Shown one piece after another: positions 15,350-23,801 of a stretch of DNA of 51,610 nucleotides. Made by a program: the position numbers and the translations under genes. Origin of the DNA: Candidatus Saccharimonadales bacterium. GTDB lineage: Bacteria > Patescibacteriota > Saccharimonadia > Saccharimonadales > JANWIN01. Every line of letters begins with the position of its first letter. Position 1 is the first letter of the stretch. The notes under the pieces were generated by a model that saw only the letters and a program-made list of their open reading frames with translations, searched no databases and was not told the DNA's origin. Location: NCBI GenBank assembly GCA_038231155.1, contig JBBRLY010000009.1:1-51610 (forward strand), written 5' to 3'.

Positions 15350-16255
15350 CTAGCGACCAAAGAATAAACCTTGCGAGTTAGACTGCAAGTTGAGTAGCTG
15401 TCCTACATTAACGAATTTATATTTCGGAGTAAGATCACGCAGGATGCTGTCTAGTGCCAATGCAGTTAGTGCATGATCGTGCATCACTAAAATCGCACCT
15501 GGGCGAACTTGAGTTTCAACTTGTTTAATTACACTGGCTGTATCTTTTTGGGCCCAGTCTTTGGGATCAACGTTCCATAAAATAACTGCCATTTTAATCT
15601 GACTTAATACTGCTGGGTTTACGGCCCCATAAGGTGGTCGAAACAAGTAAGGTGCTGGAATACCGGTAACAGTAATGGCATTTTGGGTTAGATCAATCTG
15701 TTGTTGAATTTGCGATACATTTAGTTTCGTAAAATCAGGATGTGACCAGCTGTGGTTGCCTACATCGTCGCCGTCGGTATACATACGTCTAACTAGGGCC
15801 GTATTTGGTGCTACTTTCAAACCAATCAAAAAGAAACTGGCATGGATTTTATATTTTTCAAGGGTATTTAAAATAAGCGGGCTGGAGTCGGCATTAGGAC
15901 CATCATCAAAACTAAGCGCGATACAGGCATCAACCTTACAGTCGGCTGGTGGTGGTGGCGGTGAAGCTAGCAGTTTATCTACTAAAAAACTGGACGGATT
16001 TCCGGTTTCTGGCAATAAATGTTCGATGTCGATTGATTGGCCGGCTACATGACCTTGCGGTTTGATTGGTTTTATTATTAAAGGTTTTGGCGCGGACGAA
16101 GCTTTAGTTGTAAGGCTACTGAAAGTTACAAATATAAGGGCTAAACAAATAAGTGCGCTGTTAATAAGCATTTGCGGCAGCAAATAAAACGATACCCTTC
16201 TTGGCCTTATATTTGGACGGTTATCCCATAACCGCCGCGAATTCACCATCCTCAC
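15350..16255 (-). CDS. Membrane-anchored polysaccharide/peptidoglycan deacetylase (NodB/CE4)
   Basis: LSFDDGP, NHSWSHPD, FRPPYG, WNVDPKDW and VMHD motifs after an N-terminal TM segment. Confidence 0.92.
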   Translation of the reverse strand: MRMVNSRRLWDNRPNIRPRRVSFYLLPQMLINSALICLALIFVTFSSLTTKASSAPKPLIIKPIKPQGHVAGQSIDIEHLLPETGNPSSFLVDKLLASPPPPPADCKVDACIALSFDDGPNADSSPLILNTLEKYKIHASFFLIGLKVAPNTALVRRMYTDGDDVGNHSWSHPDFTKLNVSQIQQQIDLTQNAITVTGIPAPYLFRPPYGAVNPAVLSQIKMAVILWNVDPKDWAQKDTASVIKQVETQVRPGAILVMHDHALTALALDSILRDLTPKYKFVNVGQLLNLQSNSQGLFFGR

Positions 16256-16299: not shown

Positions 16300-17325
16300 C
16301 TACAGGTGGCGTACTTTACGCCGAGCGGTTTCAAATAAATAAGTAGCTTGATATTTTATGGGGTTAACTACCAAATCGCGAGCCGGTAAATAAGCAACAT
16401 CTTGACCACCAAATCCACGCTTGAATACTGATGCTCCGTAAAAGCGGTGTTTGGTTTGTCCATGTTCGGTAATTCCCCAAAAATCATATAGTCTGCAGCC
16501 GCGTCTCTTAGCTTCATGAATAGCTTCCCATTGTATGGCATATGCACCTGGATACTGTCTGGCAAGATCAGTGCTGGCACCATAGTGATAAGCCGCTTCG
16601 CCGTTATAAAAAATTATAAAGGCCATAGCTAGTAGTTTGCCTTGATAAGTTGACCTGTACATCAAAACTTTGTCAGCTTTCGCAAATAATTTAAATTGTT
16701 CTGTTAAAAACTTATAAGAAAAAGGTACAAATTTCTGACGCTTGGCTGTTTGGATTTGCAGATTATAAAACTCATCTAATAACTTAGGTTCATTGGTAGC
16801 TTCAACTTTAATACCAAGTTTAATGGACCGATTGATTTCATACCTGGTACCTTTACGCATAGCTTTTTTAAGTTCATCATCATCTTTAGACAGATCGAGT
16901 TTACTGGTCAGTTGGGCATGTAAGTGCATAGGTGCTGTTTTAAAACCTAAGGTTTTAAACAGCTGGACTGCTTCTGATGTATTTAGAAGTTGTGGCCTAA
17001 CTCTAACAAATAGGCAGTTATGCTGTTTAGCCAGCTGCCCAATCTCGTTGACCCAAGTTGTTATAAGTTGCTGATTGTTCCAATTAAGGATTGGACCGCC
17101 GGGAATAGCTAAATGACGGCCTCTTTTTGCAGGTTCGACGACTGCTAAATTTAGTCCGACTAAATTGTCGGATTCATAGAAACCGCTACGAATAATTTGA
17201 TGTCCAAGTTGTTCATGAAATTCACCCCAATACCAGGATTGTAAAAAATTAGCTTCAGGATGTAAGGTGATGAATTCTTCCCAAATCTGCTGCTGGTCTA
17301 TGATTTTTGTTGTAATGTTTGCCAC
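16300..17325 (-). CDS. FemAB/FemX-family aminoacyl-tRNA-dependent aminoacyltransferase (GTG start)
   Basis: FLQSWYWG, YHYGAS, AIQWEAIHEAK, YDFWG and FKRGFGG motifs; short form with no coiled-coil insert. Confidence 0.9.
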   Translation of the reverse strand: MANITTKIIDQQQIWEEFITLHPEANFLQSWYWGEFHEQLGHQIIRSGFYESDNLVGLNLAVVEPAKRGRHLAIPGGPILNWNNQQLITTWVNEIGQLAKQHNCLFVRVRPQLLNTSEAVQLFKTLGFKTAPMHLHAQLTSKLDLSKDDDELKKAMRKGTRYEINRSIKLGIKVEATNEPKLLDEFYNLQIQTAKRQKFVPFSYKFLTEQFKLFAKADKVLMYRSTYQGKLLAMAFIIFYNGEAAYHYGASTDLARQYPGAYAIQWEAIHEAKRRGCRLYDFWGITEHGQTKHRFYGASVFKRGFGGQDVAYLPARDLVVNPIKYQATYLFETARRKVRHL

Positions 17326-18497
17326 TGCTTGATTTTAGCACAAATATCAGCCGCAATTACTGGGGTAATATGCCGGTGAGTTGGTAAGTTGACGATATGT
17401 TTAGCCAAATCTTCAGCTGATGGACAGCTACCGGCCTGATAGTTTGTTTTAGCCAAGTAATTCTTAGGACCAATTGGCGCATCGTACCAAGTGTCGCCAA
17501 TAAAGATATGTTGAGTACGTAAATAGTCAATAAGCGGCTTGGGGTCGTCTAGTCTAATCGGAAAACGTAGATAAGTTGGTTGACCGTTGTTGGGCTGAAT
17601 TAGCTGCAGTTCACTTATTATATTTTTGGTATAGATAGCGGCAATCTCCCGCCGGTGGTCTAGTTCAGATTGTCTATCCTGCCAGCGCTGCAAAATTAGT
17701 CCTGCGGTACTGCTCGACATACTATGCAGTCCTTCGAGTCCTTCGCTCATTGGAGTAGATAATAAGTGAAACCGTTTAAGACTAAAGTGCAAAACCCGCC
17801 CAATACCTAATTGATAAGTAGTCCGGATTAAGCCTGTCCAAAACGGATAAAAACGGTTTTTTAGGCGTTGCCAAGCTGAAACTAGTGGTAATTTAGTTAG
17901 ATTATTAGAAGTATTAGAGCGTCGATCGATTAAAGCTCCGCCGGCCACAACGTCTACCGGTTTATCCTGGCTAAATGACAGCATTATTAAAGCACCGACC
18001 GTGCCGACTTCCCGCCCATCGCTATAAATTGCTCCGACGGAATGAGCTAAGTCTTCGATTAATAAGATGCTTTGCGCTTTGCAGAATTTATCCAACTCTA
18101 CCATATCGGCCGGATAACCCAATGTGTTTTGGACAATTATGGCACTTAAACCGGGATTTTTAATTTTGGCATGTTTGAGTTGAATAATATCAAAGTTTGT
18201 TTGACCGGGAGTTATATCAATAAATAAGGCTTGATAACCAGCATTAACTACAGCCTGGTAAAGTACGTAGCATGTAAAGCCGTTAATACCAACTAGGCTA
18301 CCGGGAGGTAAATTACTATGGCGTAAGGCCAACTCTAAGGCCTCGCGACCTTTATAAGTCAGTATTACGTTTCCAGTGTAATGTTCTTTTAGGACTTGTT
18401 GAAGGTTATTAGACGCTGTTTTAGAGCTAAAAGCCAGTAAATTCCGCCAAACAAACTTTCCGGAGTAATTTGAGCCTAGTGAATTAAAAATACTCAT
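17298..18497 (-). CDS. DegT/DnrJ/EryC1/StrS-family PLP-dependent aminotransferase
   Basis: KGREALELAL, IEDLAHSVG (PLP Asp), LSFSQDKP..AGGAL (Schiff-base Lys), VNLPTH. Confidence 0.85.
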   Translation of the reverse strand: MSIFNSLGSNYSGKFVWRNLLAFSSKTASNNLQQVLKEHYTGNVILTYKGREALELALRHSNLPPGSLVGINGFTCYVLYQAVVNAGYQALFIDITPGQTNFDIIQLKHAKIKNPGLSAIIVQNTLGYPADMVELDKFCKAQSILLIEDLAHSVGAIYSDGREVGTVGALIMLSFSQDKPVDVVAGGALIDRRSNTSNNLTKLPLVSAWQRLKNRFYPFWTGLIRTTYQLGIGRVLHFSLKRFHLLSTPMSEGLEGLHSMSSSTAGLILQRWQDRQSELDHRREIAAIYTKNIISELQLIQPNNGQPTYLRFPIRLDDPKPLIDYLRTQHIFIGDTWYDAPIGPKNYLAKTNYQAGSCPSAEDLAKHIVNLPTHRHITPVIAADICAKIKQWQTLQQKS

Positions 18498-18500
18498 ATT

Positions 18501-19190
18501 TTAGCGACCTAATACTTTTACAACTATCGATGCGGTTTTTTCAGGATGACTGAAGAATGGTGAATGACGGGCATCGTCAATGATATATAAATCTGAACTA
18601 GCTATAGACTTATGCATTAATTGAGCTTCTTTAAGCGGCGTAATAGTGTCTTCCCTTCCCCAGATAATTGTTACGGGCAGGTTTATTAGTGATAAATCAA
18701 GTAACTGGTCGGCCTGTAGCATGTTTTGCATGGTACGTTTCATATTAGGCGGAGCGTTGTAGTAATCCTTAGCACCGATAAGCTTATAGAAGACTTTTTT
18801 AAGCGGTGGTATATATGAAAATAGTTTGCCAATTTTAGATAAAAATTTAAGAGTTTTTAGTTTAAGTAATGATCGTCTTTCAGTGTGGGCAATCCCGGCA
18901 CTGTCTATTAATATAAGCTGTCCGATCCGGTTTGGATATTTTTGAGCAAATGACAAGGCAATACGACCGCCGTTAGAGTGACCGATTACGGTTGGTGATT
19001 TTTGGCCACTTAACTGTTTATTTAACCACTCTATATAGCCATCGATATCCCATACTTTATCGCTGTCATCGGTTAAGCCTGGCACTCTAAGTTGAACTGG
19101 TTCAATATTATGTTTTCGTAGCTCAGCACAAAATACTGACCATTTATCCAAACTATAGGTCCAGCCATGAATAATGAAGACTTTTTTCAT
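18501..19190 (-). CDS. Alpha/beta-fold hydrolase
   Basis: IIHGW, GHSNGG nucleophile elbow, WGREDTIT, DARHSPF; ATGA overlap with the murF stop. Confidence 0.9.
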   Translation of the reverse strand: MKKVFIIHGWTYSLDKWSVFCAELRKHNIEPVQLRVPGLTDDSDKVWDIDGYIEWLNKQLSGQKSPTVIGHSNGGRIALSFAQKYPNRIGQLILIDSAGIAHTERRSLLKLKTLKFLSKIGKLFSYIPPLKKVFYKLIGAKDYYNAPPNMKRTMQNMLQADQLLDLSLINLPVTIIWGREDTITPLKEAQLMHKSIASSDLYIIDDARHSPFFSHPEKTASIVVKVLGR

Positions 19191-20467
19191 TTAGGTAATC
19201 CCCAGGCTTGGCGACGTTTTATGTCGGCTGACTCACGTCGTACAAGTTGCGCTTGGTCTTTTGGATCGGCTAATAATTGTTCGATTACACCCTCCAGGCC
19301 GCGTGCCCCTTTAAATAATACAGTTTCACCGCCTTTAAGATTAGCATTTAAATAATCAAGCACTTCTTTGGGACTTTCGAATACCGATATCGGAGTTTGA
19401 GGCACTGCCTGTTTTAAGATGGGGTAACTATATTTTTTAATCCTAGGGCCCAGTAAAATTATATGTTCTAGTTTATGTGTAGCTATATTGTAAGCTAATT
19501 TTTCATGTTCCTGCTGTTCAACGCTTCCTTGCTCTAAAATGTCACCGATTACTAACCACTTTGATTTACTGGGGTACAAGTCAAATAAATTTAAAAGAGC
19601 ATTCATAGCGCCTAAGCCGGTATTGTAAGTGCTATCTATAATCGTAATGTGATGACTGCCTTTAAACACACTGCTGCGGCCCGGAGGTGCCTGGTAGCGC
19701 GAATAGTTTTGATCTAGTCCCAAGCCTAAATAATCTAGTAATTGGTTAACCATTTGTAGGCCAATAGCCAGTTCTTTAGGTTGTACACCTGGTAATTGAA
19801 TGGTTTGACCGTTAAATCCAAAAACCGTCTCGTGAACTTTTATTTGATATCGGTCAATCCGTGCAAGTGAAACTCGTTTAACAGCTACAGACCGCTTAGC
19901 CCTTTTTAGTTCATTTACTAAGTCTGGTTGATCGCCGTTAGCGATAACTAACTTCTGGGTGGCTGACACAAAGTAACCAAATTCGTGAGCTATGGCTGCC
20001 TCATGGGATGGGAATTGGCCATTTTTGACTAGTTTGTCAAAATTCATAGAGTGAGTCCGATAAACGCTCACCCATAACAACACCTCCGGTTTCAGAAGCT
20101 TCGAGCTAAATCTACCCTCTTTGGGGCGGTCACAGTCGGATTCAACAATATATAGTTTTTGCTTGGGAAGTTTTCTAAAAATATGAAAAGGTGCTACTAA
20201 GATATATTTCAACCAAGCTGATTTGGATGGTACATTTGGTTTAAGGCCCAAAATATTAAAAGGTATGCCGATGGCGCTGTTAGCATGATGAGAGTAGGTC
20301 GCTTTAGCACCTAGCTGGGCTTCTATCATATGTAGTGTTGAGGTTTTGCCGCTAGAGCCCGTTACCACAATAATTCTAGGACGCCACCTCAGTAAAACTA
20401 GCTTTGCCCAAAATCCAAAATAGGCGGCAACAACAAAATAAAGACGCAGTTTTAATTTATGGAGCAT
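19187..20467 (-). CDS. murF: Mur ligase, MurF-like
   Basis: VTGSSGKTST P-loop, IIDSTYN, VIGDILEQG, LFKGARGLE. Confidence 0.8.
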   Translation of the reverse strand: MLHKLKLRLYFVVAAYFGFWAKLVLLRWRPRIIVVTGSSGKTSTLHMIEAQLGAKATYSHHANSAIGIPFNILGLKPNVPSKSAWLKYILVAPFHIFRKLPKQKLYIVESDCDRPKEGRFSSKLLKPEVLLWVSVYRTHSMNFDKLVKNGQFPSHEAAIAHEFGYFVSATQKLVIANGDQPDLVNELKRAKRSVAVKRVSLARIDRYQIKVHETVFGFNGQTIQLPGVQPKELAIGLQMVNQLLDYLGLGLDQNYSRYQAPPGRSSVFKGSHHITIIDSTYNTGLGAMNALLNLFDLYPSKSKWLVIGDILEQGSVEQQEHEKLAYNIATHKLEHIILLGPRIKKYSYPILKQAVPQTPISVFESPKEVLDYLNANLKGGETVLFKGARGLEGVIEQLLADPKDQAQLVRRESADIKRRQAWGLPK

Positions 20468-20514
20468 AGGGTTATTTTACCCCATTAAGTGCTTTCAGAT
20501 GTAATTCAGGCTTA

Positions 20515-20550
20515 TGGTGGAGCATTTGCGGGATGACCCACAAACGCCCC
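20515..20550 (-). ncRNA. tRNA-Ala-like acceptor minihelix (36 nt, CCA-ended)
   Basis: GGGGCGTTTGTGGG-TCAT-CCCGCAAATGCTCC-ACCA: 14 consecutive pairs including G3:U70, then discriminator A and CCA. First 5 and last 9 nt are identical to both tRNA-Ala genes in the window. Confidence 0.7.
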
Positions 20551-20626
20551 ATGATATGTGTCGGCAAATATATACTACCAAACTGTGCGAAATGCCGGAA
20601 GTCGGTTGTTTTAATAAGATTACCAG

Positions 20627-22639
20627 TTAATTTAGGCTAGACAGGTTATATTTACTACTGTCGCTTAAGGTGGCCGTTAAAGTGTATTTAGTGCATTCTT
20701 TACCAGCAGCATTACTACAAGCTTTACCATCAGAAGTTGTCGGAGCGTAAGCAAATATATGAGCAGCAGGTGTGGCGCTAAGTTTTGAGCTAGTGCCATC
20801 AGGGTCTTTAAGAGCACTTACATCTAAACCGGAGGCGTTTGCTGCTAGCCAGGTACTATCATTTAAATTAGCCAAAGTTGGATAAAAGCCATTTATAGCG
20901 TAGTAAACTTCCAGATTATTTGAGATTGATCGTAGATTAGCTTTTCTGTTAACATCCTTTGATTGAGTTGATACTGCAGAACTAGAAGTTAAATTATCAG
21001 TGCTTAGACTTCCCCCTAAAATACCGGCCAACAAATCTTGAATTGAGGTAGTTGGCGATGGCTTATCGACCTTTGTCTGGTTATTATTTGGACTAACTTG
21101 CAATTGGCCGCTGATTTTTTCGGTGTCACTATTAATACTGAATTGATTATTGGAAATGTTTGTTTTCATGTCTAGCGTTCCACTGAATCTACTAGTTGTT
21201 ACTGATTTGCCGCTTTTATCATACAAACTCAAACTATATGGAAATTGATTACCGCCTTGATAGTCTTGTCCAATTTCAAAATAACTTGTATCTTTACTGA
21301 CTCTCAATTTATGAATTAATTTAGTATGGGTATCAGCCCAGACGTCTAGGTTTGGAATGTTTTTTAACCGATCGACACTATCAGTTATTTTTGTGTCTGA
21401 TATACCGGCAATTGTCGGAAAATAAGCTTTAGCAAACTTTGTATCTTTAAGCCCATCGCGCAGCGCTTTGATATAGACTTTTAAATTTTGTTTATTTAAT
21501 TGAGCCTTGTAGTGATAGACTGATCGTTTATCTTGAGTTTCTTTACCAATTTTTTGCTTTATCTGGATAACTTGATGATTGGGGTTACTGGTAAACAGCC
21601 ATTGCTTACTTACTTTGCTAAAAGCATTTTGAAAATCAGTTATATCCTGGGCAGTTAGTTTAGGATTAGGAGAAGAACCGCTGGCTAATTGATCGGTATA
21701 ACTGTGATCGATTGAAATCCACTTGCCATCAAGTGAGTTAATCAAAGAGTCGTAGGGTGTACTTATCAACCCTAGACTTTTTATACCACTAACTTTGAAG
21801 TAAATATCTGGAAACTTAGAATTAGCTACAGCGATTGAACGTAGTTCAAAATTTATTGGTCCTTTGGTTAAATTCATACCTACTTTTAAAGAAGCGTCGG
21901 CGTTATAACTAAGAATATCGATAGAGCCAGAACCTGACTGACTACCTTCGGCTTTATACGATCCTTTAAGACTAAATCCTTTGGTAGACTTTTGGAGATT
22001 TGAAGAATAACTAATTAAATGGTCATAGCCAGCGCCTATATTAGCCCAGGATTTGTTCCAAATATTTTCCGGTTTATTTGGAACAATATAACCAAAGTAA
22101 GTTGCTGAAACGCCTGCACTTAATAAAACTATTAGCCCGAGCACTAACGTTAAAAGCTTAGTTTTTGAGCGTTTGGGCTTTATTGAACTTGAGACAACCG
22201 ATGCTACCGATTTTTGCATAGGTTCGTCAAATTGACCAATAACCGGTACAGCTGCAGTCGGTGCAGGTAAGTCTGGTAATGACTCGGTATCCTCAGTTGT
22301 ACCAAATTGTTGGGCGATGTTAGCAGTCATGATTTCACTAGCTAGCGTATTAGTAACTTGTGGTTGGATCGAAGCTACTGGATTGGCTTCGGTACTTACT
22401 TCGCCACTCAACGGTTTTGGGCGTGGATTGTTTGTACTTAAAGAAGTTGGAGCTGAAAAATTATTACTGGAAGAAAGCACTGAAACGCCTAGATCAGTAT
22501 TGTTGACTAACTCATTGTTACGCGAATCTAAGGGAGGAGCTGGCAAATCTGGTAGATTGGACTGTAACCTTGTTGGTTTTTGTGGAGGATAATTCGAATT
22601 GTTTGGTGGTTTAAAATCAACATCCATAGAATTAGTCAT
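20627..22639 (-). CDS. Membrane-anchored protein: Pro/Ser/Thr-rich N-terminus, TM helix, extracellular beta-rich domain and C-terminal pilin/GspG-like domain
   Basis: TM LLTLVLGLIVLLSAGVSATYF; C-terminal KDVNRKANLRSISNNLEVYYAINGFYP...KDPDG...C..C..Y.LTATL resembles the globular part of CPR pilins. Confidence 0.65.
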   Translation of the reverse strand: MTNSMDVDFKPPNNSNYPPQKPTRLQSNLPDLPAPPLDSRNNELVNNTDLGVSVLSSSNNFSAPTSLSTNNPRPKPLSGEVSTEANPVASIQPQVTNTLASEIMTANIAQQFGTTEDTESLPDLPAPTAAVPVIGQFDEPMQKSVASVVSSSIKPKRSKTKLLTLVLGLIVLLSAGVSATYFGYIVPNKPENIWNKSWANIGAGYDHLISYSSNLQKSTKGFSLKGSYKAEGSQSGSGSIDILSYNADASLKVGMNLTKGPINFELRSIAVANSKFPDIYFKVSGIKSLGLISTPYDSLINSLDGKWISIDHSYTDQLASGSSPNPKLTAQDITDFQNAFSKVSKQWLFTSNPNHQVIQIKQKIGKETQDKRSVYHYKAQLNKQNLKVYIKALRDGLKDTKFAKAYFPTIAGISDTKITDSVDRLKNIPNLDVWADTHTKLIHKLRVSKDTSYFEIGQDYQGGNQFPYSLSLYDKSGKSVTTSRFSGTLDMKTNISNNQFSINSDTEKISGQLQVSPNNNQTKVDKPSPTTSIQDLLAGILGGSLSTDNLTSSSAVSTQSKDVNRKANLRSISNNLEVYYAINGFYPTLANLNDSTWLAANASGLDVSALKDPDGTSSKLSATPAAHIFAYAPTTSDGKACSNAAGKECTKYTLTATLSDSSKYNLSSLN

Positions 22640-22666: not shown

Positions 22667-23572
22667 TTATTGTAAACTTTTTTGGATGCGTTGTTGTAGA
22701 TCAGTATCAGTAATTGTATGAGACGGAATTTTAATTGAATTTTCAATACCCTGGGCACTATAGTCAACTGTTTGTTTAGTGGATGGGTAGCTAAGTCTTA
22801 AAATATTACGAGACATTTTATCTACACTGATTTGCACTTGAAGTGGTTGAGCGTTTTGATATTGTGATGCATCTATGCCAGTGTTATCGAGTCCCAGCTC
22901 CTTAGCATATTGCAGCAAAACATTTACGTAAGCTAATGGGGAAACATTTACATCGTAAACATAAACCGCATGAGAATAAAGCTTGCTACTCTTAACACCA
23001 GAGATTTTATATACATTTTTATCTTTCATCATCTTAATTAAAGTATTACGTTGATCGCGGTTAAAATTTCCAAATGGTATAAGACTAAAAACATTTTGCT
23101 TGAAATATTGGGGTGACCTTTGGCTAGTAGCTGAAGCGTCGGTTTTAGACCAAATTCCAACAATATTGGCAGTATTAATCGGTTTGCCTTTACTATTTTT
23201 TTGAGTGGTATTGATGCTAATATACCGGCTGTAATCTGTTTTAGGCGTTCCAATCGATTCAGATTTGGCAGTAGCTTTAACATTATTTTGGTTTTGATTG
23301 AACGTCACTAAAGTATTGACAGCATTAGTCGATCCAAACTGTAGTTTAATATATTGATCGAGTGAACCTCTTTGATCTCCCTGAGTAAAGTGTCGAGTTA
23401 CACCAGCAGTAGCCAAGTTATTGTCCATCATTCCCCAAAATACTTGGTTTGTGTTTATATAAACTTTATACCAAAAGGTAATACTTACGGCAATTAACAA
23501 AAATACAATGATAAGGCCTATCGCAGTATTATTCCTTTTTAATGCTGAGCTACTGTTTGCTCCATCAATCAT
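22667..23572 (-). CDS. Hypothetical N-terminally anchored extracellular protein
   Basis: 301-aa ORF with one N-terminal TM (AIGLIIVFLLIAVSITFWY); TGTTACAAT promoter 6 nt before the ATG. Confidence 0.75.
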   Translation of the reverse strand: MIDGANSSSALKRNNTAIGLIIVFLLIAVSITFWYKVYINTNQVFWGMMDNNLATAGVTRHFTQGDQRGSLDQYIKLQFGSTNAVNTLVTFNQNQNNVKATAKSESIGTPKTDYSRYISINTTQKNSKGKPINTANIVGIWSKTDASATSQRSPQYFKQNVFSLIPFGNFNRDQRNTLIKMMKDKNVYKISGVKSSKLYSHAVYVYDVNVSPLAYVNVLLQYAKELGLDNTGIDASQYQNAQPLQVQISVDKMSRNILRLSYPSTKQTVDYSAQGIENSIKIPSHTITDTDLQQRIQKSLQ

Positions 23573-23626: not shown

Positions 23627-23702
23627 GGGGCCGTAGCTCACCTGGTAGAGCGCAGCATTCGCATTGCTGAGGTAGGGGGTTCGAGTCTCCCCGGCTCCAC
23701 CA
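23627..23702 (+). tRNA. tRNA-Ala(CGC)
   Basis: Cloverleaf GGGGCCG/CGGCTCC, anticodon arm CAGCA-TTCGCAT-TGCTG, TTCGAGT T-loop, encoded CCA. Confidence 0.95.
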
Positions 23703-23724
23703 CTGTGATATAATCTGCAGACTC

Positions 23725-23801
23725 GGGGCTATAGCTCAGCTGGCTAGAGCGCTTGTATGGCATACAAGAGGTCTGGGGTTCGAGTCCCCATAGCTCCACC
23801 A
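23725..23801 (+). tRNA. tRNA-Ala(GGC)
   Basis: GGGGCTA/TAGCTCC, anticodon arm CTTGT-ATGGCAT-ACAAG, TTCGAGT, encoded CCA. Confidence 0.95.

Follow-up and report, generated by a model that had tools for sequence, protein, structure and literature searches.

Known RNAs Related to the Minihelix

Helices charged through a G3:U70 pair have been used in the laboratory for 35 years to model a primordial ‘second genetic code’; the synthetic minihelix, microhelix and duplex of tRNA-Ala are said to go back to Francklyn and Schimmel in 1989. A hairpin of similar form is encoded at positions 20515..20550 on the minus strand of the window, i.e., the whole stretch of 51,610 nucleotides analysed here, which belongs to a Saccharibacteria metagenome-assembled genome (MAG) of 0.93 Mb with 40% GC. 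This 36-nt tRNA-Ala acceptor-type minihelix, recognised by sequence, fold and family comparison, represents a family that is almost certainly a selected, independent stable RNA element. A non-decoding alanyl carrier for FemAB-family transferases is favoured as the best explanation of its function, with confidence and doubt in about equal parts; the processing, charging and donor role of the RNA are predicted.

The synthetic tRNA-Ala minihelix, microhelix and duplex (PMC2175331, PMC2655667), like the element of the window, consist of one helix with G1-C72, G2-C71, G3:U70, G4-C69, A73 and CCA, and have no anticodon. The synthetic minihelix is a laboratory construct in which an acceptor-T stem of 12 bp is closed by a T loop of 7 nt, whereas the element of Saccharibacteria is genome-encoded and conserved in many families; its stem has 13-15 bp and is often mismatched at positions 7-9, its tetraloop varies, and a promoter of its own precedes it.

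The non-proteinogenic tRNA-Gly that act as donors to FmhB, FemA and FemB in Staphylococcus aureus (PMC7826273, PMC9976931) resemble the element as dedicated acceptors thought to feed Fem transferases, and these isoacceptors, like the minihelix, co-occur with Fem enzymes. However, they are full cloverleaves with a working anticodon and with altered T-stem pairs that weaken EF-Tu binding, while the minihelix has no anticodon, D arm or T loop, and its predicted amino acid is alanine.

The tRNA-like domain of transfer-messenger RNA (tmRNA) is charged by alanyl-tRNA synthetase (AlaRS) and processed by RNase P. It (RF00023) shares with the minihelix the function of an alanine acceptor, G3:U70, ACCA and the absence of an anticodon, but it is set apart by its T arm and T loop, its pseudoknots, its tag ORF and its action on the ribosome together with SmpB; none of these parts is found in the minihelix. 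The tmRNA model gave 55 bits at C16:34665-35063 and did not report the minihelix. Whole-genome ARAGORN missed this tmRNA, which the Rfam model finds.

Small RNAs such as mascRNA and 3'ETS-leuZ are cut from longer precursors by RNase P or related enzymes, beside or within tRNA or rRNA transcripts. To our knowledge, no RNA of this type has in one hairpin both the full identity set for aminoacylation and an encoded CCA, and none is linked to an aminoacyl-tRNA transferase.

In a comprehensive review of tRNA identity from 2023, minihelices appear solely as synthetic constructs (PMC9976931), and no natural example was found in the literature on minihelices in connection with FemX, CPR (Candidate Phyla Radiation) bacteria or Saccharibacteria, tRNA-like RNAs and AlaRS. 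The remark of a preliminary description of the window, made from sequence alone, that no natural minihelix gene of this kind had been described therefore still stands, since there is no Rfam family for it and the literature found deals with synthetic minihelices only.

Sequence and Fold of the Window Minihelix

The minus strand from 20550 to 20515 reads GGGGCGTTTGTGGGTCATCCCGCAAATGCTCCACCA, i.e., GGGGCGTTTGTGGG-TCAT-CCCGCAAATGCTCC-ACCA. It is composed of a 5' strand (20550-20537), the loop TCAT (20536-20533), a 3' strand (20532-20519), the discriminator A73 (20518) and CCA (20517-20515). The 14 pairs follow one another without interruption and include three G:U pairs, among them G3:U70 (G3 at 20548, U70 at 20521); folding allows a fifteenth pair, U(-1) with A73. 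When the 159-nt intergenic region between an unannotated ORF of 670 aa and a Mur-ligase gene was folded as a whole, the hairpin was present in both the minimum free energy and the centroid structures.

The first 5 and last 9 nt of the hairpin are the same as in the tRNA-Ala genes at 23627 and 23725, and its acceptor differs from that of tRNA-Ala(UGC) of the rRNA operon (C14:833-909) only in position 6, where G replaces A. ARAGORN and Rfam found nine tRNAs in the window, none of them at 20515-20550, and Rfam reported no family for the hairpin even at E<=10. In place of a cloverleaf with D arm, 7-nt anticodon loop and T arm with T loop, the locus has a single 14-bp hairpin. It is also not an intrinsic terminator, in which a GC-rich hairpin is immediately followed by a U-tract: the stem is followed by ACCATAAGCC, and the terminator scan revealed neither U-tract nor terminator near the hairpin on the minus strand. 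The identity set for AlaRS is complete, comprising G3:U70, A73, G1-C72, G2-C71, G4-C69 and a single-stranded 3' CCA. The window was found in two independent DNA metagenome runs by sequencing-run search.

The preliminary description had reported the 14-pair hairpin, its G3:U70 pair, its discriminator A and encoded CCA, the termini shared with the two tRNA-Ala genes, the absence of a U-tract and of terminator character, an extended -10 about 21 nt upstream with the ATG of the next gene 47 nt downstream, and the lack of a D arm, an anticodon arm and a T-loop. The sequence, its folding and the terminator scan agree with it in all of these respects.

Distribution and Covariation of the Family

Among 41 related genomes, 14 have a match to the pattern GGGGC-N16-34-GCTCCACCA, whereas the reversed control gave a single hit. 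Of these matches, ten are clean hairpins whose inner stems differ from each other; matches L002, L011, L012 and L013 form poor hairpins and were rejected as members. A covariance model was built on four members of equal length, and the remaining members were aligned to it. In a sample of about 400 Saccharimonadales genomes, 24 of the 401 genomes of the order were positive, belonging to 11 GTDB families, with exactly one copy in each. The excess over the reversed control and the single copy per positive genome exclude a chance origin. At least 6 minihelix copies escaped the strict filter, as did all 7 copies of the mini-cloverleaf variant described below, and further copies were recovered by looser searches and inspection of the loci of the gene cassette that adjoins the element in the window.

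In total, about 31 distinct minihelices are known; they represent at least 15 GTDB families of this order, and one more comes from elsewhere in the phylum. The latter, from genome G663 (L056/L116) of another family, reads GGGCTTTGAGTAGGGTAACCTCTACTCGGGTCCACCA and lies between tRNA-Lys and tRNA-Ala(GGC); it retains G3:U70, A73 and CCA, and has C4-G69 instead of G4-C69. Accordingly, the family extends beyond Saccharimonadales. The rRNA spacer of genome G231 (L031 1151-1306) contains two different minihelices in the order tRNA-Ala, minihelix A, tRNA-Ile, minihelix B. Weak matches in the phylum (L057-L061, L099, L103, L105, L107, L109) were rejected, being sequences without CCA, palindromes or 3' halves of tRNAs, while L096, L101, L108 and L110 were placed neither among the members nor among the non-members.

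The alignment (A4) has 32 rows, namely 31 minihelices and one genuine tRNA-Ala. Paired cells make up 91% of the minihelix alignment, compared with 70% in shuffles and 36-50% in slid controls, and changes compensated on both sides occur at 10 of the 14 pairs. Conservation with covariation in related genomes, which the preliminary description had proposed to look for, is thus present across no fewer than these 15 families. G1-C72, G2-C71 and G3:U70 are found in 32 of 32 rows, and ACCA is invariant; position 4:69 is G-C in 30 of 32 rows, and 5:68 alternates between C-G and U-A. Mismatches, either A.A or tandem G.A, are frequent at positions 7-9, corresponding to the junction of acceptor and T-stem in tRNA.

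Another G:U pair, located near the loop, is freely exchanged for G:C (21 versus 8), while 3:70 remains G:U in every row. This difference indicates selection on the wobble pair itself. A variant at 3:70 would have been detected, because typical members score 35-50 bits, far above the detection level of about 20 bits.

The acceptor stem of the minihelix differs from that of the adjacent tRNA-Ala at 5:68-7:66, so the possibility that the minihelices are copies of the acceptor stem of the neighbouring tRNA was rejected. Beyond the termini, the stem has no remaining likeness to present-day tRNA-Ala.

Mini-Cloverleaf Variant

At the corresponding gene, genomes G048/G104 (loci L066/L074), G076 (L073), G022 (L094), G392 (L100), G066 (L104) and G116 (L095) contain a mini-cloverleaf of 59-63 nt. 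Its acceptor is of the same 7-bp alanine type, with G3:U70 in all six examined and with ACCA. It carries three short arms with tri-, tetra- and penta-loops; an anticodon loop of 7 nt is absent, and so is any consensus of a D-loop or T-loop. With folding energies of -28 to -31 kcal/mol, all mini-cloverleaves form a four-way junction, and their arms show compensatory changes. They adjoin the same cassette in place of the minihelix, in several cases with their own terminator.

The third arm (GTAGG..CCTAC) is a motif of the distal half in many minihelices, which makes the minihelix look like the acceptor plus T-arm equivalent of a degenerate tRNA-Ala. Since orthologous loci in some lineages carry a mini-cloverleaf, comparison of the sequences points to descent of both forms from a tRNA-Ala-like gene under continued selection, and not to a decaying relic. 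The preliminary description had named a full tRNA-Ala or tmRNA at orthologous loci as an observation that would reduce the hairpin to a relic; the larger RNA present there in some lineages is the anticodon-less mini-cloverleaf.

Promoter, Processing Signals and Genomic Position

An extended -10, TGGTAGTAT, is located at 20572..20580 of the minus strand, 21 nt 5' of G1. The motif TGnTAnnnT precedes 22 of the 25 free-standing copies, while its chance expectation is 0.06 per sequence; in 19 of these 22, the distance from its end to G1 is 8-13 nt, most often 11. This spacing implies a leader of about 4-5 nt in most copies, and the long outlier in the window implies one of about 14 nt. The base directly before G1, U(-1) at 20551..20551 of the minus strand, is U in 31 of 36 family members; bacterial RNase P prefers U(-1) in the leaders of pre-tRNAs.

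Intrinsic terminators occur 5-40 nt past CCA in many loci. Most relatives have a separate terminator hairpin further downstream of the minihelix, and T-runs directly after ACCA occur in a few loci (L034, L036, L014).

The position of the element varies. In several relatives, it is co-oriented with the ligase gene and lies 60-110 nt upstream of it; a terminator is located between the two in L008, L073, L087 and L026; the element is divergent, on the strand opposite the ligase gene, in G024, G115, G361 and G022, and is 1.3-2.5 kb away in G065, G392, G066 and G148. Eight loci of families f33, f54 and f64 have the element in the 16S-23S spacer, beside tRNA-Ala(UGC) and tRNA-Ile, mostly between the two and in L031 after tRNA-Ile, with gaps down to 3 nt. 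A ninth copy, in G271 (L055), lies in an array of tRNA-Ala, tRNA-Val and tRNA-Ile, and is classed here on these tRNA neighbours alone.

The ligase gene appears to have a promoter of its own. A putative -10, TAAAAT, is located at 20474..20479 of the minus strand, 6 nt before its ATG, and similar boxes (gTAAAATa, GTATAAT and the like) precede the ATG of orthologous ligase genes by 6-8 nt at many loci among L005-L014 and L041-L053. No Shine-Dalgarno sequence was found at the ligase starts with such a box (window, L005-L014, L041-L053). From this spacing, the cassette mRNA is probably leaderless and the minihelix a separate unit.

The element, with its own promoter and a position free of the neighbouring gene, is thus an independent transcription unit of variable position and orientation, not an operon leader, and its positions fit an RNA processed like tRNA. 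The earlier placement of the hairpin at the head of an operon is contradicted by the divergent copies, the copies in rRNA spacers and the putative -10 of the ligase gene.

Association with FemAB Genes

Genome analysis of the sample showed FemAB in 22 of the 24 minihelix-positive genomes and in 135 of the 377 negative genomes (p = 5e-8), and the cassette in 14 of the 24 and 31 of the 377, respectively (p = 6e-9), with counts uncorrected for phylogeny. The co-occurrence with femX, also proposed earlier as a check, is therefore borne out. The two positive genomes without FemAB are 76% and 90% complete, and all well-assembled positive genomes contain it. The element lies no more than about 3.3 kb from FemAB in at least 9 genomes of 5 families, and a minihelix or mini-cloverleaf is present in at least 26 of 45 cassette-positive genomes. 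In the genus g162, genomes G338 and G393 contain both FemAB and the element, and G218 contains neither.

In the window, the gene of the FemAB-family aminoacyl-tRNA-dependent transferase is located at 16300..17325 of the minus strand (341 aa; PF02388, 7e-42), and it is the sole FemAB gene found in the genome.

Proposed Function

The AlaRS gene of this genome (C16:14018-15904) encodes a protein of about 629 aa that stops after the editing domain (...IRRIKAVLA*) and has no C-Ala domain. In other AlaRS, this domain touches the tRNA elbow, and its absence may be relevant to the charging of RNAs that have no elbow.

In the coupled AlaRS-FemXWv assay of Villet et al. 2007, tRNA-Ala minihelices, a 24-nt microhelix and the bare acceptor duplex were functional (PMC2175331). 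FemXWv reads G1-C72 and G2-C71, and G3:U70 matters for AlaRS only (PMC2175331); Fonvielle et al. 2009 identified G2-C71 as the main FemX determinant and confirmed it with acylated helices (PMC2655667). The window minihelix has the features of a FemXWv donor, G1-C72 and G2-C71, and the positions that never vary in the family are the union of the AlaRS and FemX determinant sets. This coincidence and an AlaRS without C-Ala favour the carrier function.

According to the proposed scheme, the minihelix would be transcribed from its own extended -10 or, in other lineages, within an rRNA or tRNA precursor; RNase P would cut the 5' end at G1, after the conserved U(-1), and the 3' end would be trimmed to the encoded CCA. 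AlaRS would then charge the RNA with alanine via G3:U70, A73, G2-C71 and G4-C69. Having no anticodon, D loop or T loop, the minihelix cannot decode, and it would hand its alanine to a transferase of the FemAB family that recognises G1-C72 and G2-C71, in this genome the single FemAB enzyme of the cassette. To judge by sequence, alanylation is rather probable, and for the donor role, confidence approaches but hardly exceeds an even balance.

A number of observations speak against the carrier function. The distribution is patchy: many FemAB-positive genomes have no minihelix, including complete genomes in positive genera (G176, G305, G316, G327), and four near-complete cassette genomes of f64 (G119, G246, G358, G368) are without the element. 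FemAB enzymes accordingly do not require the minihelix. No such element was found in the inspected cassettes of Levybacteria, Doudnabacteria, Parcubacteria and other CPR MAGs. The linkage of element and cassette may be partly inherited synteny, because tRNA-Ala genes occupy the same neighbourhood. About 28 loci were usable for this comparison, and in 17 of them tRNA-Ala(GGC/CGC) lies upstream of the cassette at a distance of less than 3 kb; a single tRNA-Gly is the one tRNA of another type in these stretches. In the window, tRNA-Ala(CGC) and tRNA-Ala(GGC), at 23627..23801 of the plus strand, are in synteny with the cassette, and the minihelix may have evolved from them. Kinship of the FemAB protein with characterised FemX is distant, its best NCBIfam model being FemX UDP-MurNAc-pentapeptide-lysine N6-alanyltransferase with 61 bits against a cut-off of 500. 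A stem of 14 bp with a tetraloop differs from the 12-bp stem and T-loop of the RNase P and synthetic minihelix work. There is no terminator after CCA in the window, so read-through into the ligase gene is possible there. Finally, searches of sequencing runs with the window (19000-22000, 20300-20700) and with the spacer copy L028 revealed no RNA run that contains the locus; in RNA runs, the fraction of words in common with the queries reached at most 0.14-0.19, and these are probably words of tRNA or rRNA.

It is proposed, with confidence somewhat short of even, that Saccharibacteria encode a new class of cellular RNA, namely an anticodon-less aminoacyl carrier matured by the tRNA machinery, charged by a C-Ala-less AlaRS via the ‘operational code’ of the acceptor alone, excluded from the ribosome and feeding alanine to FemAB-type envelope transferases, with the mini-cloverleaves recording its stepwise reduction. 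If so, Schimmel's minihelix would for the first time have a counterpart in nature, acceptor-stem-only aminoacylation would be in use by modern cells, and the amino-acid supplies of cell wall and translation would be split more extremely than in any known case, beyond the non-proteinogenic tRNA-Gly of staphylococci. The carrier question is directly testable, because some Saccharibacteria are now culturable and genetically manipulable (PMC10633639). The family itself adds an RNA gene of Saccharibacteria that is currently missed by gene finders and Rfam, and draws attention to a widespread and so far uncharacterised envelope cassette of CPR bacteria, comprising a Mur ligase, hydrolase, DegT aminotransferase, FemAB transferase and deacetylase.

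Alternative Explanations

An element of RNA processing or stability, unlikely on balance, accounts for part of the evidence. The hairpin would be RNase P punctuation or a protective end hairpin derived from a tRNA-Ala gene, without a role of aminoacylation, and G3:U70 and CCA would be kept since RNase P and exonucleases need a tRNA-like end. The copies within rRNA and tRNA precursors with 3-nt spacers, U(-1), the T-runs after ACCA, and gains and losses within genera are consistent with this. However, RNase P does not specifically need G3:U70 or A73, and yet 3:70 is G:U throughout the alignment; the free-standing copies with their own promoter and terminator have nothing else to process, the divergent copies are unable to punctuate the cassette mRNA, and the association with FemAB is left unexplained.

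The same identity set would also explain binding of AlaRS by a stable tRNA-like RNA, charged or not, that acts as a regulator or sponge, for instance by tuning AlaRS availability or reporting the status of alanine charging. Overexpressed G3:U70 minihelices reportedly inhibit the growth of E. coli (Hipps and Schimmel, 1995), which counts for such a role, and an accessory function fits the patchy distribution. Nevertheless, it is rather improbable: the restriction to FemAB-positive genomes and the adjacency to the cassette find no explanation, the invariant G1-C72 and G2-C71 are FemX determinants, and placement in rRNA operons implies very high constitutive expression, odd for a regulator.

The RNA could also be a charged carrier for some other enzyme or process, for example in the aminoacylation of lipids or for a transferase as yet unknown, or a decoy against toxins that target acceptor stems. 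Ten of the 24 positive genomes have no cassette, the chemistry of the cassette is unassigned, and copies of the internal transcribed spacer type are not near FemAB genes. This explanation is considered improbable: FemAB is present in all well-assembled positive genomes, and no alternative candidate appeared, FemAB being the sole aminoacyl-tRNA transferase family tested.

Very little speaks for a cis-acting leader or operator of a murF-like operon, i.e., a tRNA mimic bound by AlaRS or FemX, as one alternative of the preliminary description had it. The window copy, 47 nt before the ATG without a terminator, and the co-oriented copies of several relatives are arranged as such a leader would be, but the intervening terminators, the copies on the opposite strand, those at kilobase distance and those in rRNA spacers and tRNA arrays of genomes without the cassette contradict it.

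A decaying pseudogene of tRNA-Ala or tmRNA, also suggested earlier, or an assembly artefact is the least credible of all, for although the acceptor ends match the local tRNA-Ala genes, the compensatory covariation across families, the conserved promoter and the lack of tRNA-Ala likeness inside the stem argue against decay, the intact tmRNA on C16 led to rejection of a tmRNA relic, and recovery of the window from two independent metagenome runs argues against an artefact.

Genes of the Cassette and Its Surroundings

The genes of the cassette are encoded on the minus strand. The first of them, at 19187..20467, encodes a MurF-type Mur ligase of 426 aa with Mur_ligase_M/C domains. Its score with TIGR01143 is 116 bits against a cut-off of 288.6, and it is the best match of the genome to the MurF model (88 + 25 bits). 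All genes of the genome stay below the MurF cut-off, and just three Mur-ligase genes besides this one were seen, so this divergent ligase may, from its sequence, be the MurF of the organism. What the preliminary description called murF is thus to be corrected to a divergent Mur-ligase gene with a product below the cut-off, albeit the best MurF candidate that the genome has.

The ligase gene is followed by genes of an alpha/beta hydrolase (18501..19190, 229 aa), a DegT/DnrJ/EryC1-type PLP sugar aminotransferase (17298..18497, 399 aa) and the FemAB transferase, and the last gene encodes a polysaccharide deacetylase (15350..16255, 301 aa). The gene after the cassette is that of LeuRS.

A four-gene cassette of ligase, hydrolase, DegT and FemAB, 41-49% identical, was found in MAGs of Levybacteria, Doudnabacteria, Parcubacteria and Paceibacteria (L041-L053). 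The cassette contigs L040, L044, L047, L048 and L053 are deposited as ‘Chlamydiae bacterium’ or ‘uncultured Gammaproteobacteria’ and are probably mislabelled or chimeric MAGs. Most Saccharibacteria loci and one of Doudnabacteria (among L038, L039, L040, L045 and L062-L092) have the gene of tRNA-Ala(GGC), with or without that of tRNA-Ala(CGC), less than 3 kb upstream of the cassette.

Neither of two ORFs, at 20627-22639 (670 aa) and 22667-23572 (301 aa), matched a family of Pfam or NCBIfam. The C-terminus of the 670-aa ORF has a paralogue on C16 with 43% identity, and the 301-aa ORF is syntenic, being located directly upstream of the minihelix in many relatives.

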